From: an uncultured Planctomycetota bacterium
GTDB lineage: Bacteria; Planctomycetota; Planctomycetia; Gemmatales; Gemmataceae
Reading direction: 5' to 3'
DNA length: 64,000 nt
NCBI GenBank assembly: GCA_963849325.1
Contig: CAWKHF010000009.1
Location: 384,001-448,000, forward strand
Each line of letters begins with the position of its first letter. Position 1 is the first letter of the stretch. Below the pieces are notes generated by a model that saw nothing but the letters and a program-made list of their open reading frames with translations, was not told the origin of the DNA and did not search any database. Shown in pieces: positions 19,380 to 27,876 of this stretch. A program made the position numbers and the translations under genes.

Positions 19380-21812
19380 TCAATCCGCGACGAGGCAGGG
19401 GGCAGGACGGTCGAGGACCTCGCGTACCTTCTCCGCCAAGGCAGAGGGAGTGAAGGGCTTGGACAGGCATTCGACCTCACCGGACACGATGCCGTGCCGG
19501 AACAGGGCGCTGTCGGTGAAACCGGACATGAAGAGAACCTTGAGGTCGGCTCGCTGAGCGACCAGGTGTTCGGCCAGGACGTTGCCGCCCATCTTCGGCA
19601 TAACCACGTCGCTGAGCAGCAGGTGAATACGCCCCGCGTGGCGGCGGCTGACTTCCATGCCTTCCTCGCCGTTGGACGCCTCCAGGATGTGATAACCGCG
19701 TTGCCGCAGCGTATGGCAAACCAGGGCGCGCAGCCCGTCTTCGTCCTCGACGACCAGCAGCGTTTCCACGCCGCCTGGTGGGACCGCCGCGCCGGCTGGC
19801 GTGCCCGGCTCGATGGCCGGCTCTTGTTGCCAGCAGGGCAGGTAAATGCGAAAGGTGGTGCCCCGGCCCAATTCGCTGGCGACCTCGATGTGGCCGCTGG
19901 ACTGCTTGACAATGCCGAAGATCGTCGCCAACCCCAGTCCGGTCCCCTTGCCCTGGCCCTTGGTCGTGAAAAACGGCTCGAAGAGATGACCCATCACTTC
20001 GCGGTCCATGCCGCAGCCGGTATCGCTCACCTCCAGGCGAACGAAGGCGCCCGGCAACACGTCGGGATTGTTCCGTAGGGCGGCGGCGTCCAGCTCGACG
20101 TTGGCGGTGGCGATGCGCAGGCGGCCGCCGCGCGGCATGGCGTCGCGCGCGTTGGCCGCCAGGTTCATCAGCACTTGCTCGACCTGGTTCTGGTCCGCCT
20201 TGACCCGATGCAGGTCGTGGCCGAGGGACAGGGCCAACTCAACGTCTTCGCCGAGGAGAGGGCGGAGCATCTTTTCCAGGTCGGCGAGCAGGGCGTTGAG
20301 GTCCAGCGGGCGCGGCACCAGCATCTGTTTACGGCTGAAGGCCAGTAGCTGCTGAGTGAGTGCCGTGGCCCGCTCGGCCGCCTTGGCGACCTCGCCGACG
20401 AAGTCGCGCAGCGGCTCGTCGGCCGGCAAACCCTCCGCCACCAGCGTGTTGTAGCCGGTGATGATGCACAGCAGATTGTTGAAGTCGTGGGCGATGCCGC
20501 CGGCCAGCCGGCCGACCGCCTCCATCTTCTGTGCCTGCCGCAACTGCCCTTCCAGGCGCTGGCGCTCTCTCATGTCGCGGGCGATGATCGAGAGAAACTC
20601 GAAGGCGCCCGCCGGCGACTTGTGGGCGAGCATGACCTGCGACACGGTGATTTCCGTGCCGGCCCGACTGAGGAGCGCCATTTCGCCGCTCCAGGTGCCG
20701 TCGCCAACCGCCCGCGCCACCGACTCGTCGAGGACGCGACTCAAGGCGGGCGGGTAGAAATCGCCCAACCGGCACGCGGATACGTCCTCCTCCGAACCGA
20801 TGCCGAGCAAGGTCCGTCCAGCCCGATTGAGGTACAGCAAGCGACGGTCGGGGCCCGTCATGGCGACGACGTCCGTGGTCGCTTCCAGGACGGCGACGAG
20901 GCGAGCCTGCGCTTCCTTGGCTTGTTTGCGTTCGGTCACGTCCACCAGAATGCCGATGGTGCCCGTGATGCGCTTCTCCGCGTTGCGCAGCGGATCGACG
21001 CGCACCTGGAACGTCCGTTCCTTCCACTCCATTTCGTAGCTGAGCGCTTCGCCGCGTAGCGCCTTCAAGTGGGCGCTGATCGGCGTACACTCAGGCCGAT
21101 CGCGTTCCAGGCATTCCAACATGCTCATGCCGATGACATCCTTGGCCTGGAGATTGACGGCGGCGAGTCCGGCCCCGACCGTGGACGTGATTTGCAGTCG
21201 GGTGTCGGTCGTCCACAGGATCGCCGGCATCTGCTCGACGACCAGGCGCAGGTACGTCTCGCGCGTGCTCAGCGTCTCGCGTGCCTTGCGGGTTGGCGTG
21301 ACGTTGCGCAGGACCAGCGTGGCCCCGGCCGCCTTCGAGCCGGCGGGGGAGGGTCGGATGCTCACTTCGAGGTGGATGTCGCCGCCGTCCTTGCGCCTGC
21401 CCAGGCATTCCTGGCCCGATTCCGGCAGTCCCCTGGGAAGCACGGTGTCCAGCGATTGACCAATCAGCTCCGCCGGTTCATGACCGAACAGCCGGCCCAT
21501 CGGCCCGTTGACGGCGACGATGTGCCGCCGCTCATCCACGACGACGACGCCCTCGGCGACATCTTCCAGCACGCCCCGGCCGTGCTCGGCGATTTGCTGC
21601 ATTCGCCGCATCTGCCGCCCGAGAACGGCCACGATGGCGAGGACGCCCAACAGCGAACCGAGACCCACGAAGTCCACGATTCGGAAGAAGGGCACAACCT
21701 CCAGGCGGAGAATGTCGCCGTCGAGCCAGCCGGTTTGAGCGAACCAATTGCCGGCCAAGAAAACCGCACAGAGAACGCCCAGGGGACGAAGGACAACACG
21801 GCCGGCATCCAT
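19380..21812 (-). CDS. PAS-domain hybrid sensor histidine kinase / receiver
   Basis: Three PAS-like segments, 'AGGIAHDFNN', 'FFTTK..GTGLGL', C-terminal REC 'LLSDVVMP'. Confidence 0.93.
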   Translation of the reverse strand: MDAGRVVLRPLGVLCAVFLAGNWFAQTGWLDGDILRLEVVPFFRIVDFVGLGSLLGVLAIVAVLGRQMRRMQQIAEHGRGVLEDVAEGVVVVDERRHIVAVNGPMGRLFGHEPAELIGQSLDTVLPRGLPESGQECLGRRKDGGDIHLEVSIRPSPAGSKAAGATLVLRNVTPTRKARETLSTRETYLRLVVEQMPAILWTTDTRLQITSTVGAGLAAVNLQAKDVIGMSMLECLERDRPECTPISAHLKALRGEALSYEMEWKERTFQVRVDPLRNAEKRITGTIGILVDVTERKQAKEAQARLVAVLEATTDVVAMTGPDRRLLYLNRAGRTLLGIGSEEDVSACRLGDFYPPALSRVLDESVARAVGDGTWSGEMALLSRAGTEITVSQVMLAHKSPAGAFEFLSIIARDMRERQRLEGQLRQAQKMEAVGRLAGGIAHDFNNLLCIITGYNTLVAEGLPADEPLRDFVGEVAKAAERATALTQQLLAFSRKQMLVPRPLDLNALLADLEKMLRPLLGEDVELALSLGHDLHRVKADQNQVEQVLMNLAANARDAMPRGGRLRIATANVELDAAALRNNPDVLPGAFVRLEVSDTGCGMDREVMGHLFEPFFTTKGQGKGTGLGLATIFGIVKQSSGHIEVASELGRGTTFRIYLPCWQQEPAIEPGTPAGAAVPPGGVETLLVVEDEDGLRALVCHTLRQRGYHILEASNGEEGMEVSRRHAGRIHLLLSDVVMPKMGGNVLAEHLVAQRADLKVLFMSGFTDSALFRHGIVSGEVECLSKPFTPSALAEKVREVLDRPAPCLVAD

Positions 21813-22035
21813 CGCGGACCTCCGAACCTTGTTCTCGATACCAAATCCATCCCTGGGGAAACGGTCCCAGAACGAGAGCGATACCTTCTCTCCCTCGGGG
21901 AGCGAGGAGGGTCAAACAAGCATAGGTGATAAAGTGTGCCGAGGCGGGCCCGTTCCGTTGCGTGAACGGGCGCACAGTCCAGCAGCGACGATTTTTTTTC
22001 AAGATGTGGAGTTGGACCTAGAATAACGATACAGT

Positions 22036-22180
22036 GCAGCCGAATCTCACGCTTCTCGGCGTGAGAACGGGGGAACCATCAGGTCGGCGAGGGCCGGCCT
22101 TCGGGGCGTAGACCGACTCGTGTGGGTCAGGATACTTTCCATCCCAGCCCGTCAGCTAACCTCGTAGGCAGCCTGGAAGC
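22036..22180 (+). ncRNA. c-di-AMP (ydaO/yuaA) riboswitch
   Basis: Conserved blocks in order: GCCGAATC, ACGGGGGAACC, GGGG, ATCCC..CCCGTCAGCTAACCTCGTAGGC. P2 is CTCACGC/GCGTGAG and the pseudoknot is TTCCA/TGGAA. Ends about 90 nt before the ATG at 22272. Confidence 0.9.
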
Positions 22181-22271
22181 GTTTTCCGGGCCTATGTGAA
22201 AGGCACACCCGTCTCGCTTTCCGGACGAAGAGCCTGCTCCTTATACCGGCATAGTCGCCACAGGTGTCACC

Positions 22272-24616
22272 ATGTCCGCTCTCCTTGTCTTCGCCAACGG
22301 CGGAGTCGCCGCGCCCTGGGAGTTATCTCTTCCAGGGCAAATCCTCGTGGGGTTCCTCGTCGTCGTGGGCATCCTGCTGCTGATCGCCTGGCTGACGGTG
22401 CGTTACATCCCGAACCAGCAGGCGGCCGTCGTCGAAAAGCTCTGGTCCAATCGCGGTTCGGTGCCGGAAGGCAGCATCCTCGCCCTGGACGGCGAGGCCG
22501 GCTTCCAGGCCGATCTGCTGCGCGGCGGCCTACATTTCGGACTTTGGAGATGGCAATATCGCCTCCACAAAATACCGCTCGTCACCATCCCCCAGGGCAA
22601 GATCGGTTACGTTTATGCCCGCGACGGCGAATCGCTGCCGCCCAGCCAGACGCTCGGCCGCGTCGTGACGTGCAACAATTTCCAGGACGCGCGGACCTTC
22701 CTCGGCCAAGCGCCGGAGGCGGGGGCCGAGAACGCGCGCGGCCAACGCGGCCGGCAGCGAGCCATCCTGCGCGAGGGCGTGTACGCCATCAATCCGGCCC
22801 TGTTCGTGGTCATCACCGAGGACGCCGTCTATCGACTGAGCATGGGAGGCGGAGCACGCGAGTTACAGGTACTGCTGAGTTGGCAGCAGCAGTTGCGCCG
22901 CATCGACGGCTTTAGCCCGGTCGTGGTTGGCGCCTCGATGCGGGTGCGCGAAACGATGGCGGACGCCGAAGCCTTGGACGAGGCCGAGGAGGAGAGAGCG
23001 TCGCTCCGCGCGAAGCGCGGACGCATCGTCGGTGCGCCGATCCCCGAGTCCCCCGTGCCGCTGGATGTGGAAGCACAGCGCGACGTGGACACCATCGCCA
23101 TCGTCACCGTCCAGGACGGCCCATCGCTGCTGCCCGGCGAGATCATCGCCCCCGGCGTCGGCAACGACAACAACGACCCCAACTACCATAACAACTATCA
23201 GGATCCCGAGGCGTTCCTGCGGGCCGGCGGCCGTCGCGGCCGCCAGTACGTGCCGCTGACCGACGGCACCTACTTCCTCAATCGCTGGTTCACCACGGTC
23301 GAGGTCGTCCCGAAAACGGTCGTGCCGATTGGCTACGTCGGCGTGGTCGTCAGTTATTACGGCCGAGTCGGACGCGACCTGTCCGGCGAGGCCTTCCGCC
23401 ACGGCGAGCGCGTCGCCGAGGGCGAGCGCGGCGTGTGGGAACGGCCGCTCGGCCCCGGCAAGTACCCCTTCAACACCTACGCCGGCCAGATCATCATGGT
23501 GCCGACGACCAACTTCGTCCTGCACTGGATCACCGGCCAATCCGAGGCGCATCGCTACGATGAGAGCCTGCGCTCCATTGACCTCGTGACCAAGGATGCT
23601 TACGAGCCGCTGTTGCCGCTGTCGGTCGTCGTTCACATCGACTACCAAAAAGCGCCCGGCGTCATCCAGCGCTTCGGCGACGTCAAGAAGCTCATCACGC
23701 AGACTCTCGACCCGATGCTGAGCGCCTACTTCCGCGACGTGGCCCACAAGAAGACGATGCTGGAGTTGCTGCACCAGCGCGATGCCATCCAGGCGGAGTC
23801 GCGCGAAGAGCTGCGCCGCAAGTTCCGCGATTTCGACATCGAGTGCGTGGACGTGCTCATCGGCAAGCCGGACACGGCCGAGGCCGGCGGCAAGATCGAG
23901 ACGCTGCTGGAACAACTCCGCGTCCGCCAACTGTCGATCGAGCAGCTGGAGACCTATGACCGTCAACGTGCCTCCGCCGACAGGCTGCGGATGCTGAACG
24001 AGGCGCAGGCGCAGGCGGCCATGCAGACGCAGCTGACCAACTCGCGCGTGCAGATCCAGATCGCCGAGAGCCAGGGCGAGGCCGACCTGGCGCGGCGCGC
24101 AAGCAGGCGGAGCAGACGGTCGTGAACGCCGACGCCGAGCTAGCCCGCGCCCGCCGCCAGGCCGAGCAGACGGTCGTGACCGCCGAGGCCGACGGCCGGC
24201 AGCGCGTCCTGGCCGGCCGCGGCGAGGCCCAGCGCGTCATGCAAGTCGGTCTATCCGAGGCATCCGTGCTCCTGCGCAAGATCGCCTCGTTCGGCGATCC
24301 ACGTCTGTACGCCCTGTCGATCATCACGGAGCAGCTGACACACAGTAGTCAGCCGCTGGTGCCCGAGCGCGTGTTCATGGCCGGCGCCAACGGCGACAGC
24401 AGCGGCAGTTCGTCCGGCGCCTCCGGCATGTTGGGGCTGCTGCTCAATCTGCTGGTCGCCGAAAAATCCGGCTTCCAGCCAGTGGACGTGGGCGAGATGA
24501 GCGGTTTGAAGGAGATCAGCGAGCGTCTGACGCGCGACGCCCTGGAGTCGCTGCGCCAGGCATCGCTGGCGCCGCCGCCGGAATCGAAGCCCGCCGCCAA
24601 CGGCCCGACGAAGTAG
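22272..24616 (+). CDS. SPFH/flotillin-like membrane protein (~780 aa); frameshift near 24098
   Basis: N-terminal TM, two 'G.RGRQ..L..G.Y..N' repeats, SPFH 'IDLVTKD..LSVVVHID', Ala/Glu-rich coiled coil. Confidence 0.85.
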
Positions 24617-24628
24617 CGAGAGTGTCAG

Positions 24629-24668
24629 AGGGCCGCTGGCGGCACAGCGCGAAGCCGCCAGCGGCCCT
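24629..24668. repeat. Palindromic element, family F
   Basis: AGGGCCGCTGGCGGC..GCCGCCAGCGGCCCT; related copy at 42631. Confidence 0.75.
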
Positions 24669-24691
24669 TCGCCTCTACGGAGAACCAACCG

Positions 24692-25408
24692 ATGTCTCCC
24701 CTCGCCGAGGGCATGCCGGACGTGATGCAGGTCTGCCGCAACGGCCACGTCATCACGGACCTGTTGCACAGCTACCCCGAGCGCGGCCTGTCGCACTGCG
24801 ACCGCTGCGGGGCCGATACCATCGAGCACTGCCTGACCTGCGGCCAGGAGCTGCCGGGCGCCATCGCCGTCCCCGGCCTGCAACCTGTCGGCGCACGGCA
24901 GCCGCCGCGCTACTGCTCGACATGCGGGGCCGCCTTCCCCTGGACCGAGCGCCCCCGTCCGCCGGCGACGACACCGCTCGCGGTCCTCGAACACCTGCTG
25001 CGCCGTCTGCCGCGCACCATCCGCGAATTGCGGACACGCCAGGGCGAGCGTCCGCCCTTCCGCGTTGAGGACGAGAGAGACCTGGAAGACCTGATGCGGG
25101 CGCTGCTGCCGCTCCACTTCGACGATGTCCGACCGGAACGTCGCACGCCGCGCTACGCCGCCGGCACGCGCACGGATTTCTTGCTGGCGCCGGAAGGTAT
25201 CGCCCTCACCCTCAAACTCGCCGTGCCGAACATCACCGAGCAACTTCCTGAGGATGCGGCATATTACCGGCGCGAGCGGAAGTATCGCATTCTCGTGGTG
25301 TTCGTCCACGATCCGGAAGCCTTGCTCCGCGAGTTGTGCCTGCCGCAAACGATCGGCGCGGAATGCGGGGAAGGCCCGGAAGTGCGGTGCGTGGTCGGCT
25401 CCAGGTAA
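24692..25408 (+). CDS. DUF2321-like Zn-ribbon domain fused to a DpnII/MboI-like PD-(D/E)XK domain
   Basis: 'QVCRNGH..CDRCG..CLTC..YCSTCGAAFPW', then 'DERDLEDL..FDDVRPE..RTDFLL..VFVHDP'. Confidence 0.7.
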   Translation: MSPLAEGMPDVMQVCRNGHVITDLLHSYPERGLSHCDRCGADTIEHCLTCGQELPGAIAVPGLQPVGARQPPRYCSTCGAAFPWTERPRPPATTPLAVLEHLLRRLPRTIRELRTRQGERPPFRVEDERDLEDLMRALLPLHFDDVRPERRTPRYAAGTRTDFLLAPEGIALTLKLAVPNITEQLPEDAAYYRRERKYRILVVFVHDPEALLRELCLPQTIGAECGEGPEVRCVVGSR

Positions 25409-25617
25409 ATCGCTCGTTTCGCTCGTCCACTGGCTCAGGGGACAAACGATCCGTTGCCCGGTCGAATCGTACTTCCCTCCGTTCCCTACTGCTGGACGGG
25501 CGTGCAACGAGACGGTTCGGGTTTTGGGGCTGTGAAGGACGAGCCAGAGTGCTACAATTGCTCCGCTGCCAACGTCGTCGGCACGGTTATTCTTCCTCGG
25601 TCAACGAAGCCGACAAC

Positions 25618-27876
25618 ATGGGTATCAACATCCTGCTCGTGGACGATCAGGAGCGCAATCTGCTGGCCCTGGAAGCGGCCCTCGAACCGCTGGGTCAGAA
25701 CCTGGTCAAGTCCCACTCCGGCGAAGAGGCGCTGCGTCTGCTGCTCCAGGACGACTTCGCGGTGGTCCTGCTCGACGTGCGCCTGGGCGACATGGACGGC
25801 TTCGAGGTCGCTCGGGCCATTCGCGCCGCGGAGAGGTCCAAGCACACCCCCATCATTTTCATCACGGCCTACGACAGCGACGACCTGGCGCCGGCGCGAG
25901 CCTACACGCTGGGCGCGGTGGATTACCTCGTCAAACCGTTGGTGCCGGAAATCCTTCGCGCCAAGGTGGCCGTCTTCATCGACCTCTTTCAGAACGTCCG
26001 CCTGCGCCAGAGCGAGCGACGGCTGCGTGCCCTTTTGGAGAACGCCTGGGACGGCATCTCCTTGGTGGGCGCCGATGGCAGCATCCTCGACAACATCCCC
26101 GACAATCTGCACCGCCTCGGCTACAGCTCCGAGGAGTTCGTCGGCCACAACGGCTTCGAGTTCGTCCACCCCGACGACCTCCCGGCCGTGGGGGGTGCGC
26201 TGGCCCAAGTTCTGCAAACAGCCGGCGCCAAGGCAACGATGCAGTATCGCCTGCGCCGCAAGGACGGCTCCTGGTGCTGGGTCGAGGGCACCGGCACCAA
26301 TCTCTTGCACGACCCGGACGTGCGGGCCATTGTCGTCAACTACCGCGACATCAGCGGGCAGAAGGAGGCGGAACGGGCCGGGGCGGAATTGGCAGCCATC
26401 GTCGAGTCGTCGGAAGACGCCATCATCGGCAAGGATCTGCACGGCGTCATCACCAGCTGGAACAAGGGAGCGGAAAGTCTCTACGGCTACACCGCCGCGG
26501 AAGTGCTGGGCAAGCCGGTCTCGCTCCTCGCCCCGCCGGAGCAGCCGGACGAGCTACCGGGCCTGCTGGAGCGACTCCAGCGCGGCGAGCGCATCCAGCC
26601 TTACCAAACGGTGCGCGTGCGCAAGGACGGCACGCGGATGGACGTATCGCTGAGTGTCTCTCCCATCCGGGACAGTCAGGGCCAGATCATCGGGGCCGCC
26701 AAGATCGCCCGCGACATCGGGCCGCAGAAGCGACTGGAGGAAGAGCTGCGCCGCGCGCGGAGGCGTTGGCGGAAGCGGATCGGCAGAAGGACCAGTTCCT
26801 GGCGATGCTCGCTCATGAGCTGCGCAACCCGCTGGCCCCTCTCGTCAGCGGCTTGCACGTCCTTCGCCAGTCACAGACGCCGCCCCAGACGCGGCAGCAG
26901 ACGCGCGACATGATGGAACGGCAATTGCGCCACCTGGCCCGGCTGATCGATGATCTGCTCGACGTGTCCCGCATCCTGCGCGGCAAGGTCCAGCTGCGTC
27001 CGGAGCGGCTGGACCTGGGACAACTGGCCCGTCGGGCGGCCGAGGACCAGCGTGCGGTCCTCCAGCGGGCGGGGCTGTCCCTTCGGCTCGACATCCCGCC
27101 ATCGCCCGTCTGGGTGCTGGGAGATGCGACCCGCTTGATCCAGTTGCTCAACAACCTGCTCGACAACGCGGCCAAGTTCGCCGCGGAGGGACGCCACGTC
27201 ACCGTCCGGGTGCGCATAGATGAAGGGCGACAGCAGGCGGTCCTGTCGGTCCAGGATGAGGGCATCGGCATTGAGACGGAGATGCTGCCGCACCTGTTCA
27301 ACGTCTTCGCCCAGGCCGACCGCAGCCTGGACCGTTCGCGCGGGGGCCTCGGCCTGGGCCTACCGCTGGTGAAAGGGCTGGCGGAGTTGCACGGCGGCAG
27401 CGCGGAGGCGTTCAGCGCGGGACCAGGGCATGGCGCCGAGTTCACCATCCGCCTGCCGAGGGGACCGGAGCCGGCGGCGTTATTGCAAAGTACCGCCGCA
27501 CCGCAGCCGTCCGGGAAACACCAACGCATTCTCGTCGTCGAAGACAACCAGGACGCGGCGAACAGCCTGTCCCTCTTGCTGGAACTGCTGGGCCACGAGG
27601 TCCGCGTCGCCTATTCGGGACCGGAGGGCGTGACGTTGGCCCAGGAGTGGCGGCCGGACATCGTGCTGTGCGACATTGGTTTGCCCGGCCTGGATGGCTA
27701 CGGCGTGGCGCGGCAACTTCGCCTCAACCCGACGACGGCGCGCGTGCGCCTGTCTGGCGCTGACGGGTTACGGCGCGGACGAAGACAAGCGTCGTTCCCG
27801 CGAGGCGGGCTTCGATTACCATCTGGTCAAACCCGCTGACCCAGAGGAATTGCAACGGCTGCTGGCCTCGGGATGA
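25618..27876 (+). CDS. Hybrid kinase REC-PAS-PAS-HisKA-HATPase-REC; frameshifts near 26755 and 27750
   Basis: 'ILLVDDQ', 'AHELRNPL', 'GGLGLGL', '[10 protein letters not shown]'. Confidence 0.9.

Follow-up and report, generated by a model that had tools for sequence, protein, structure and literature searches.

A predicted c-di-AMP riboswitch of variant architecture upstream of an SPFH membrane protein gene in a planctomycete

The targets of cyclic di-AMP (c-di-AMP) are best known from Firmicutes and Actinobacteria and have hardly been studied in Planctomycetota, and what bacterial SPFH/flotillin-like proteins do is an old question. Both subjects meet in a stretch of 64,000 nucleotides (nt) from an uncultured soil bacterium (the whole stretch is called the window here), in which an RNA element of the ydaO/yuaA type was noticed in front of a gene for an SPFH (Band 7) membrane protein. 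This raises the question of whether the element belongs to the c-di-AMP riboswitches, whether an SPFH gene is a regular target of this class, and in which direction and by which mechanism such a switch would act. An earlier, sequence-only reading of the locus had assigned it to a planctomycete, which agrees with the nearest homologues being labelled Gemmataceae.

The aptamer and its pairing with SPFH genes

A scan of the entire 64-kb window with Rfam yielded a single family above its gathering score, the c-di-AMP riboswitch family RF00379. It matches the plus strand at 22028-22185 with 63.4 bits against a cut-off of 38, an E-value of 2.3e-12 and the full model covered (positions 1-134 of 134), which bears out the ydaO/yuaA assignment made from the letters alone. 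The SPFH gene had been placed about 90 nt behind the aptamer; its ATG at 22272 indeed lies 86 nt past the end of the match, on the same strand. The features concerned are the following:

21996..22024, plus strand: sigma-70-type promoter-like site (TTTTCA, 17 nt, TAGAAT), ending 4 nt before the aptamer match
22028..22185, plus strand: c-di-AMP riboswitch aptamer (RF00379), from the Rfam match, with stem P1 from 22038
22129-22145, plus strand: P7 hairpin, with the loop CUUUCCAU at 22135-22142
22272..24616, plus strand: SPFH/Band 7 membrane protein gene, 781 amino acids (aa) if read through, split in the assembly

The core nucleotides of the aptamer agree with the RF00379 consensus, and the core blocks are invariant in alignments of 7 and of 13 leaders. 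Compensatory changes are found in 16 of the 50 RNAalifold pairs of the 13 leaders, and three of the four pairs of the P7 stem have changed on both sides. The promoter-like site occurs once against 0.1 expected in shuffles and predicts a transcription start near 22031. Among 31 leaders compared, a -10 box (TAGAAT, TATAAT or TAAAAT) stands 11-14 nt before P1 in all, and a TTGCAA/TTGACA-like -35 box in most or nearly all, which puts the aptamer at the extreme 5' end of the transcript. Judged by its family membership, we take the window RNA to be a real, full-length c-di-AMP riboswitch of variant architecture, and it is very likely that it responds to c-di-AMP.

The genome encodes the DAC cyclase (PF02457) for which the earlier reading had proposed a check, with matches of 71.9 and 56.4 bits. 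One of the two genes codes for a 188-aa protein and the other combines a CdaA_N membrane domain with DAC, the latter being split in the assembly:

84770-85128 of contig C1 (genome G000, locus L004): CdaA_N + DAC gene in two frames

In addition, the genome contains a second RF00379 aptamer (contig C6:205910-206063, equal to L002 1501-1654; 48.1 bits) before an APC permease of the KimA kind. This copy is of a window-like design, with a hairpin, a UUGAAAG strand and a GGGC...GCCC hairpin.

To follow the pairing of aptamer and SPFH gene, 80 loci encoding orthologues of the SPFH protein (59-85% identity) on one-genome-per-species contigs were analysed. Of 18 loci scanned with the Rfam model, six have RF00379 just upstream of the gene and on its strand, and the same six were found by R1, a model made from seven aptamers. 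R1 gave 88-159 bits in 32 of the 80 loci, with one match each, just upstream and on the same strand, the next best score being 14.6 bits. As four of the 80 loci have no upstream DNA, the pairing is present in 32 of 76. The distance from the end of the aptamer to the gene ranges from 73 to about 373 nt, the likely ATG codons being a matter of choice. For the tree (FastTree, 79 rows, midpoint root, no bootstrap), L041 and L050 were dropped (best high-scoring segment pair below 450 aa). It contains an aptamer-free clade of 37 rows (support 98) with the labels Gemmataceae, Isosphaeraceae, Tepidisphaeraceae and Phycisphaerae, and 32 of the 42 rows outside this clade carry the aptamer. Four of the other ten are those without upstream DNA and the remaining six score at most 11.5 bits with filters off. 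Some loci are labelled Rhizobiaceae, Deltaproteobacteria, Alcaligenaceae, Sumerlaeota or Kuenenia; since these are nested among planctomycete rows, the labels are taken as binning errors.

A survey of the genes behind aptamers in Planctomycetota, which the sequence-only reading had suggested, placed SPFH genes behind 3 of 20 aptamers across the phylum and behind 12 of 31 among relatives. In a phylum sample unselected for the protein, RF00379 occurs in 17 of 151 genomes with 20 matches, which precede seven APC permeases of the KimA kind (including the second copy of this genome), three TrkH, one Kup and three SPFH genes, one open reading frame (ORF) with a methyltransferase domain, and in five cases no family or no clear ORF. 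The three SPFH cases are the window, L099 and L104, which are orthologues (50-52% identity). In a sample of 41 relatives, 20 genomes contain 31 matches. The SPFH family of the window stands behind 12 of them and APC permeases behind 13, one match was not fetched, and the others precede one KdpA gene, one Rpf-like transglycosylase, one nuclease-fold gene, one different Band_7 gene and one unknown ORF. The window SPFH family is found behind an aptamer in nine of the nine aptamer-bearing genomes of the same genus. The target had been called unusual for a planctomycete; this holds with respect to the literature searched, where no SPFH target is named, but not within the genus, where it recurs in every aptamer-bearing genome. 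From these comparisons we regard the SPFH gene as a conserved regulon member in this lineage and not as a one-off.

Among the relatives, the transglycosylase behind the aptamer of L111 (G152) carries a PcsB-type coiled coil. Like this transglycosylase, the KdpA gene behind the aptamer of L118 (G168) is a classical type of target, here present in planctomycetes. At L019 397-448, an Acido-Lenti-1 RNA (RF01687, 41.5 bits) was found about 2.5 kb ahead of an SPFH orthologue that lacks the aptamer.

The different Band_7 gene belongs to G167 (L135 95-1965), where the aptamer is followed by a 104-aa ORF without a family and then by a 408-aa Band_7 protein that has no detectable similarity to the first SPFH family. 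A metagenome scan yielded 12 loci of this second SPFH family, ten of which were scanned with Rfam, the other two beginning at the gene. Seven of the ten (L137, L138, L140, L141, L142, L144 and L147) have RF00379 upstream on the strand of the gene. In the other three the upstream DNA is 377, 142 and 518 nt long, short of the roughly 600 nt needed, so that the aptamer is present in seven of seven loci with enough sequence. With the 408-aa protein as query the second family was not found in the genome of the window, which is 84.7% complete. The occurrence of two unrelated SPFH families under one riboswitch class speaks in favour of a functional link and against chance gene order, and by this comparison the link between aptamer and SPFH has been recruited for two SPFH families.

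The SPFH gene, its frameshift and the second gene

The gene behind the aptamer had been described as flotillin/SPFH, of which the SPFH part stands. Band_7/SPFH (PF01145) is matched at residues 350-551 with 59.4 bits against a cut-off of 23.6, and an intact orthologue, P0003, matches at 53.8 bits. The flotillin part is at most putative: no Pfam family besides Band_7 was found at E <= 5, and there was no NCBIfam match. At its N-terminus the protein has a hydrophobic anchor, followed by some 300 aa without a family; the Band_7 domain and a long C-terminal helix come next. An AlphaFold2 model of P0003 from 37 close homologues, of low confidence overall (mean predicted local distance difference test score 43.8, predicted template modelling score 0.23), shows helices at 19-42 and 533-669. 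In the ESM Atlas, the clusters found with residues 44-345 were either without a name or called 'Band 7 fragment', and phmmer found no match to the protein among PDB sequences. The 120 best homologues listed are single proteins of 625-840 aa, nearly all above 730, which, where named, are called Gemmataceae, SPFH domain-containing or 'uncharacterized membrane protein YqiK' (JGI). The genome holds a single copy of this family; three other Band_7 genes lie in tandem on another contig.

The predicted length of about 780 aa agrees with the 781 aa obtained by reading through, but not with a single ORF, as the frame changes in the assembly: one ORF of 617 aa (22272-24125) is followed, in another frame, by one of 164 aa (24122-24616). 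Three close homologues (about 770 aa) are continuous as ...GEADLARARKQAEQTVV... over this frame change. One G is absent from the run of G at 24094-24095, the context at 24090-24100 being GCGCGGCGCGC. Soil run X1 contains three 151-nt contigs identical to the window, and the X1 contig that spans 24013-24162 has an extra G behind 24093 and no other difference. The extra G is also present in contigs of relatives from X2 (3), X7 (3) and X11 (5), X7 and X11 being RNA-library contigs that were used for the inserted G alone. Of the words sampled from 21950-24700, at most 13% occurred in any one public run, and none gave the source reads. Each half of the gene shares 87-88% identity with an intact orthologue and has no internal stop. 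The cdaA-like gene of the same assembly is likewise in two frames, which, together with a completeness of 84.7% in 14 contigs, indicates indel errors in the assembly. The frameshift is taken to be an assembly error or a rare variant, and given the X1 contig with the missing G and otherwise identical sequence, the gene is probably intact at 781 aa.

Behind the SPFH gene, a second gene and a hairpin in the spacer are found:

24628..24669, plus strand: intergenic hairpin with a 16-pair stem and a 10-nt loop, in a 75-nt spacer that folds at -44.9 kcal/mol
24692..25408, plus strand: gene for a 238-aa protein with a DUF2321 zinc-ribbon-like N-terminal half and a C-terminal half of DpnII/MboI restriction-endonuclease fold, from Pfam

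The fusion of DUF2321 and a nuclease fold, read from the sequence as starting 75 nt behind the SPFH gene on the same strand, was recovered as such: the gene starts 75 nt past the SPFH stop at 24616, with PF10083 (DUF2321) at residues 10-87 (74.2 bits against 24) and PF18742 (DpnII-MboI fold) at residues 98-213 (74.6 bits against 27). Among the PADLOC models, Aga_Helical-REase matches it at the level of a domain (E 6.9e-14). Since this nuclease-domain match is the only one for the second gene and neither SPFH protein was matched by any PADLOC model, a reading as a defence system was rejected. Nothing related to DUF2321 was found in the papers searched.

A homologue of the second gene follows the SPFH gene in 15 of the 80 loci, 12 with and 3 without the aptamer, and the two genes overlap by 2-13 nt in three of the 15. 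Of 12 relatives with a spacer, all 11 with at least 69 nt (L007, L008, L009, L012, L014, L023, L026, L028, L030, L032 and L055) contain a strong hairpin (-31 to -81 kcal/mol) whose structure is kept while the sequences are unrelated; L027, with a spacer of 27 nt, has none. Such hairpins may reduce read-through or shield the upstream mRNA at its 3' end. As both genes recur together and the spacer hairpin is kept, they are a conserved unit in part of the family, and the riboswitch is taken to control the SPFH gene and probably the second gene as well.

In G171 (L136 119-1893), about 360 nt separate an aptamer of this design from the gene for a stand-alone DpnII/MboI-fold protein of 168 aa, which shares 40% identity with the nuclease-fold half encoded by the second gene. 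The genes that come next encode an S-adenosylmethionine methyltransferase and a DDE transposase, and the arrangement may be what a rearrangement has left of the operon. Upstream of the aptamer, a hybrid PAS histidine kinase/receiver gene is located at 19380-21812 on the minus strand (CckA-like by NCBIfam, below the cut-off). ORFs for a receiver-PAS protein lie at 25336-27839 on the plus strand, and no link of either flanking locus to the riboswitch was found.

Leader architecture and switching mechanism

Between P1 and the SPFH start codon, the following elements were located:

22171..22191, plus strand: hairpin H1 of 8 pairs, inserted between the 3' strand of P1 and the pseudoknot strand
22193..22202, plus strand: 3' strand of the pseudoknot, UAUGUGAAAG, pairing with the P7 loop at 22135-22142
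22202-22234, plus strand: hairpin H2 (GGC...CGUC/GACG...GCC), candidate intrinsic terminator or expression platform
22235-22246, plus strand: U-richer tail after H2, part of the same candidate terminator or expression platform
22262..22274, plus strand: Shine-Dalgarno (SD)-like AGGUG and the SPFH ATG, read from the sequence

In all 34 leaders compared, the 3' strand of P1 is followed in the same order by H1, whose sequence is variable, by a UUGAAAG strand and by GGGCAC, which opens H2. The UUGAAAG strand and the CUUUCAA loop of P7 are complementary; the window version of the strand is UAUGUGAAAG. The resulting pseudoknot comprises 7 pairs, with 95.8% of the cells paired in the 34 sequences against 60-62% after a slide by one column. 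In the alignment, pair 19-84 is A-U in 23 and C-G in 6 sequences, and the neighbouring pair 18-85 is A-U in 24 and G-U in 6. Matched variants occur in L028 (CUUUCGCGU with ACGUGAAAG), in L076, L066 and L059 (CUUUCCA with UGGAAGG) and in L029 (CCCUUUCAA with UUGAAAGGG). H1 itself has both-side changes in all 3 inner pairs tested, with 91% of the cells paired. L126 and L123 have no H1, and UUGAAAG follows directly after P1 as in classical members of the class; the construct printed in PMC5393176 likewise has its loop-tail complementarity directly after P1.

Rfam had placed the 3' tail at 22174-22180 (within 22171-22185) instead of 22193-22202, an alignment that, as the comparison with 33 other leaders indicates, does not represent the real pseudoknot. 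The pseudoknot noted by the sequence-only reading thus exists, with its 3' strand corrected to 22193-22202, behind H1. The leader represents an aptamer variant with a hairpin between P1 and the pseudoknot strand, whose 3' end is misaligned by the Rfam model. The P7 loop of the window is one base shorter than that of its closest relatives (CUUUCCAU against CUUUCGCAU), and at 22202-22204 the relatives' GAAAGGGC reads GAAAGGC in the window. The deviations at 22135-22142 and 22202-22204 could be further indel errors or true changes, with no identical read over either.

H2 is present in 34 of 34 leaders, with closing pairs GGGC/GCCC and an inner stem that varies by clade (CGUCU/AGACG, CGCUCC/GGAGCG, GUCCGA/UCGGAC or UCGCC/GGCGA), at energies from -7.6 kcal/mol in the window to -19 kcal/mol. 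The 12 nt after H2 contain 1-7 U, at least five in most leaders, with runs such as CUCUUUUG, CUCUUUUUCG and GAUGUUUUUCG; L124, a close SPFH leader, has seven consecutive U. Further downstream, ACAGGTGT...ATG is kept in 10 of 13 close leaders. The combination of pseudoknot strand, GGGC...GCCC hairpin and U-rich tail is common to the leaders of KimA-like genes (L002, L128-L132), of KdpA (L118) and of the second SPFH family. H2 may be a weak intrinsic terminator. When folded without the pseudoknot, 17 of 22 leaders have a closing-pair probability of H2 of at most 0.10, which makes a competing fold possible.

Two attempts to define the platform further were set aside. Choosing the closed segment of lowest energy behind the pseudoknot strand always gave long multi-branch structures and was uninformative, and a mimicry between CCCGUC of the aptamer core and the 5' strand of H2 was dropped because the inner stem of H2 differs in other clades. 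In L087, L089 and L091 from other Planctomycetota, a classical tail (GAGAGG or GGAGG) comes immediately after P1, and CUCCUC...AGGAGG hairpins before TrkH genes would mask the ribosome-binding site, a platform unlike that of the window.

The c-di-AMP riboswitches are described in PMC9960051 as OFF switches, with termination in B. subtilis. As the platform is shared with potassium-uptake genes and the published members are OFF, OFF polarity seems rather likely for the window switch as well, by this indirect argument. Overall, the explanation that fits best, and that we consider likely, is a c-di-AMP riboswitch that turns off the unit of SPFH and DUF2321/nuclease-fold genes, with a platform held jointly with potassium importers. 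The aptamer would form the 5' end of a two-gene mRNA coding for the SPFH/Band 7 protein and then the DUF2321 and nuclease-fold protein. Transcription would begin at the conserved promoter near 22031 and the RNA would fold as a ydaO-type aptamer, with the strand at 22193-22202, behind the extra hairpin, closing the pseudoknot and the GGGC...GCCC hairpin and the U-richer tract adjoining it. Bound c-di-AMP would fix P1 and the pseudoknot, H2 would close and expression would stop, the likeliest route being premature termination, to which we give slightly less than an even chance as the mechanism here. Without ligand, the bases of H2 would pair elsewhere and both genes would be read. At low c-di-AMP, as under potassium shortage or osmotic upshift, SPFH would be switched on together with the potassium importers, since the same leader design stands before KimA-like and KdpA genes.

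Several observations weigh against this explanation or parts of it. The fold of the single window leader is no better than those of shuffles (z of -0.5 and -1.0), and the covariation of the pseudoknot comes mostly from one clade of six sequences and thus reflects few events. No terminator was called on the plus strand from 21800 to 22400, the window H2 is the weakest of the 34, and its tail has 5 U in 12 nt without a U run. Across the leaders folded no conserved anti-terminator or alternative pairing was found, the predicted partners of GGGC being the aptamer core, the 5' strand of P1 or its own 3' strand (11 of 22 leaders). Actinobacterial members of the class act without a canonical terminator or on translation, according to PMC9960051. 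Moreover, 44 of the 80 orthologous loci have upstream DNA and no aptamer, three of them with the SPFH-DUF2321 pair, so that the switch is dispensable for the SPFH gene. Finally, the SPFH gene is frameshifted in the assembly as given.

The same riboswitch might instead act on translation or mRNA stability, its ligand-bound fold masking the ribosome-binding region or exposing the leader to RNases or Rho, and the GGGC...GCCC hairpin being a structural part of the aptamer. This is the less likely course. It would account for the missing terminator call in the window and has parallels in the C. glutamicum and S. coelicolor members without canonical terminators (PMC9960051) and in the tails of L087 and L089, whose hairpins mask AGGAGG in other planctomycete leaders. 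A conserved hairpin directly before the start region (GUGGCG/CGCCAC or UGACC/GGUCA, depending on the group) also fits, and so does a possible pairing of ACACC (22205-22210) with the SD-like GGUGU (22263-22267), present in the window and in some of the relatives. However, sequestration of the SD sequence by ACACC was dropped, as the pairing is not conserved among close leaders (L007 has AUCUU and L023 CUUCUU); three close leaders have no SD-like sequence at all, and U-rich tails follow H2 in most leaders of all target classes.

A real aptamer that is an ON switch or binds a related ligand, so that SPFH expression rises with c-di-AMP, appears improbable. In L029 the pseudoknot can reach the GGG of the hairpin base (CCCUUUCAA with UUGAAAGGG), and ligand could open the hairpin, but an extension of this type exists in one of 34 leaders. 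The same platform precedes KimA-like and KdpA genes, which c-di-AMP shuts down according to PMC9960051 and PMC7266159, and the core nucleotides fit the RF00379 consensus. Still more improbable is a decaying locus, with the SPFH gene a true pseudogene and the riboswitch a functionless relic. The broken frame at 24094-24095, the P7 loop that is one base short (CUUUCCAU against CUUUCGCAU) and the H2 and H3 stems, the weakest of the set, would be in keeping with decay. Against it stand the 100%-identical 151-nt soil contig with the missing G, the cdaA gene that is also in two frames, which with 14 contigs and a completeness of 84.7% fits indel errors, and the two gene halves, 87-88% identical to an intact orthologue with no stop inside. 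OFF control by c-di-AMP thus remains the preferred explanation.

Relation to known systems and meaning for the regulon

The leader resembles those of B. subtilis kimA (ydaO) and ktrAB (yuaA) in belonging to the same family (RF00379), in its core blocks, in the pseudoknot between P7 loop and tail, in its position as a 5' leader and in the hairpin and U-rich tract after the aptamer; in addition, this genome too has a copy before a KimA-like permease. It differs in that the target is an SPFH protein and neither a transporter nor a cell-wall enzyme, in the phylum Planctomycetota, in the roughly 21-nt hairpin that separates P1 from the pseudoknot strand, and in the weak and interrupted terminator-like hairpin. 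With C. glutamicum nlpC and S. coelicolor rpfA it shares a high-G+C host, the lack of a textbook terminator and presumably OFF polarity (PMC9960051), and the relative G152 has an aptamer before an Rpf-like transglycosylase. The actinobacterial members, however, control cell-wall hydrolases, whereas the window platform is a distinct, conserved element common to several target classes. The protein is similar to SPFH proteins of the YqiK/FloT type (COG2268) in its Band_7 domain, N-terminal membrane anchor and long C-terminal helix with repeated AEQTVV motifs, and unlike them in its length of about 780 aa, with an extra 300 aa or so without a family before Band_7.

Targets of the class listed in a review are potassium and amino-acid transporters, cell-wall remodelling and osmotic-shock genes (PMC7266159). 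In the literature searched we found no SPFH, flotillin, YqiK, stomatin or band 7 target of a c-di-AMP riboswitch, although the gene tables of the founding papers could list one, and no paper on a c-di-AMP riboswitch in Planctomycetes. The riboswitch class is a known one, and the SPFH target and the leader architecture are new as far as the literature was searched.

The sensor RNA places two unrelated SPFH families in a regulon with the potassium importers KimA, Kdp, Trk and Kup. That such control could link osmotic or cell-wall signalling to membrane remodelling, as the sequence-only reading proposed, is an inference. That the SPFH protein acts in potassium or turgor physiology is a tentative suggestion. 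Equally tentatively, Planctomycetota may have drawn SPFH scaffolds into the c-di-AMP regulon repeatedly and as a regular component. At low c-di-AMP the scaffolds would be produced along with potassium importers, and they would organise or protect the membrane, or the importers themselves, while potassium is short or osmolarity rises. If this is true, the co-transcribed zinc-ribbon/nuclease-fold protein would represent a further arm of the same response.

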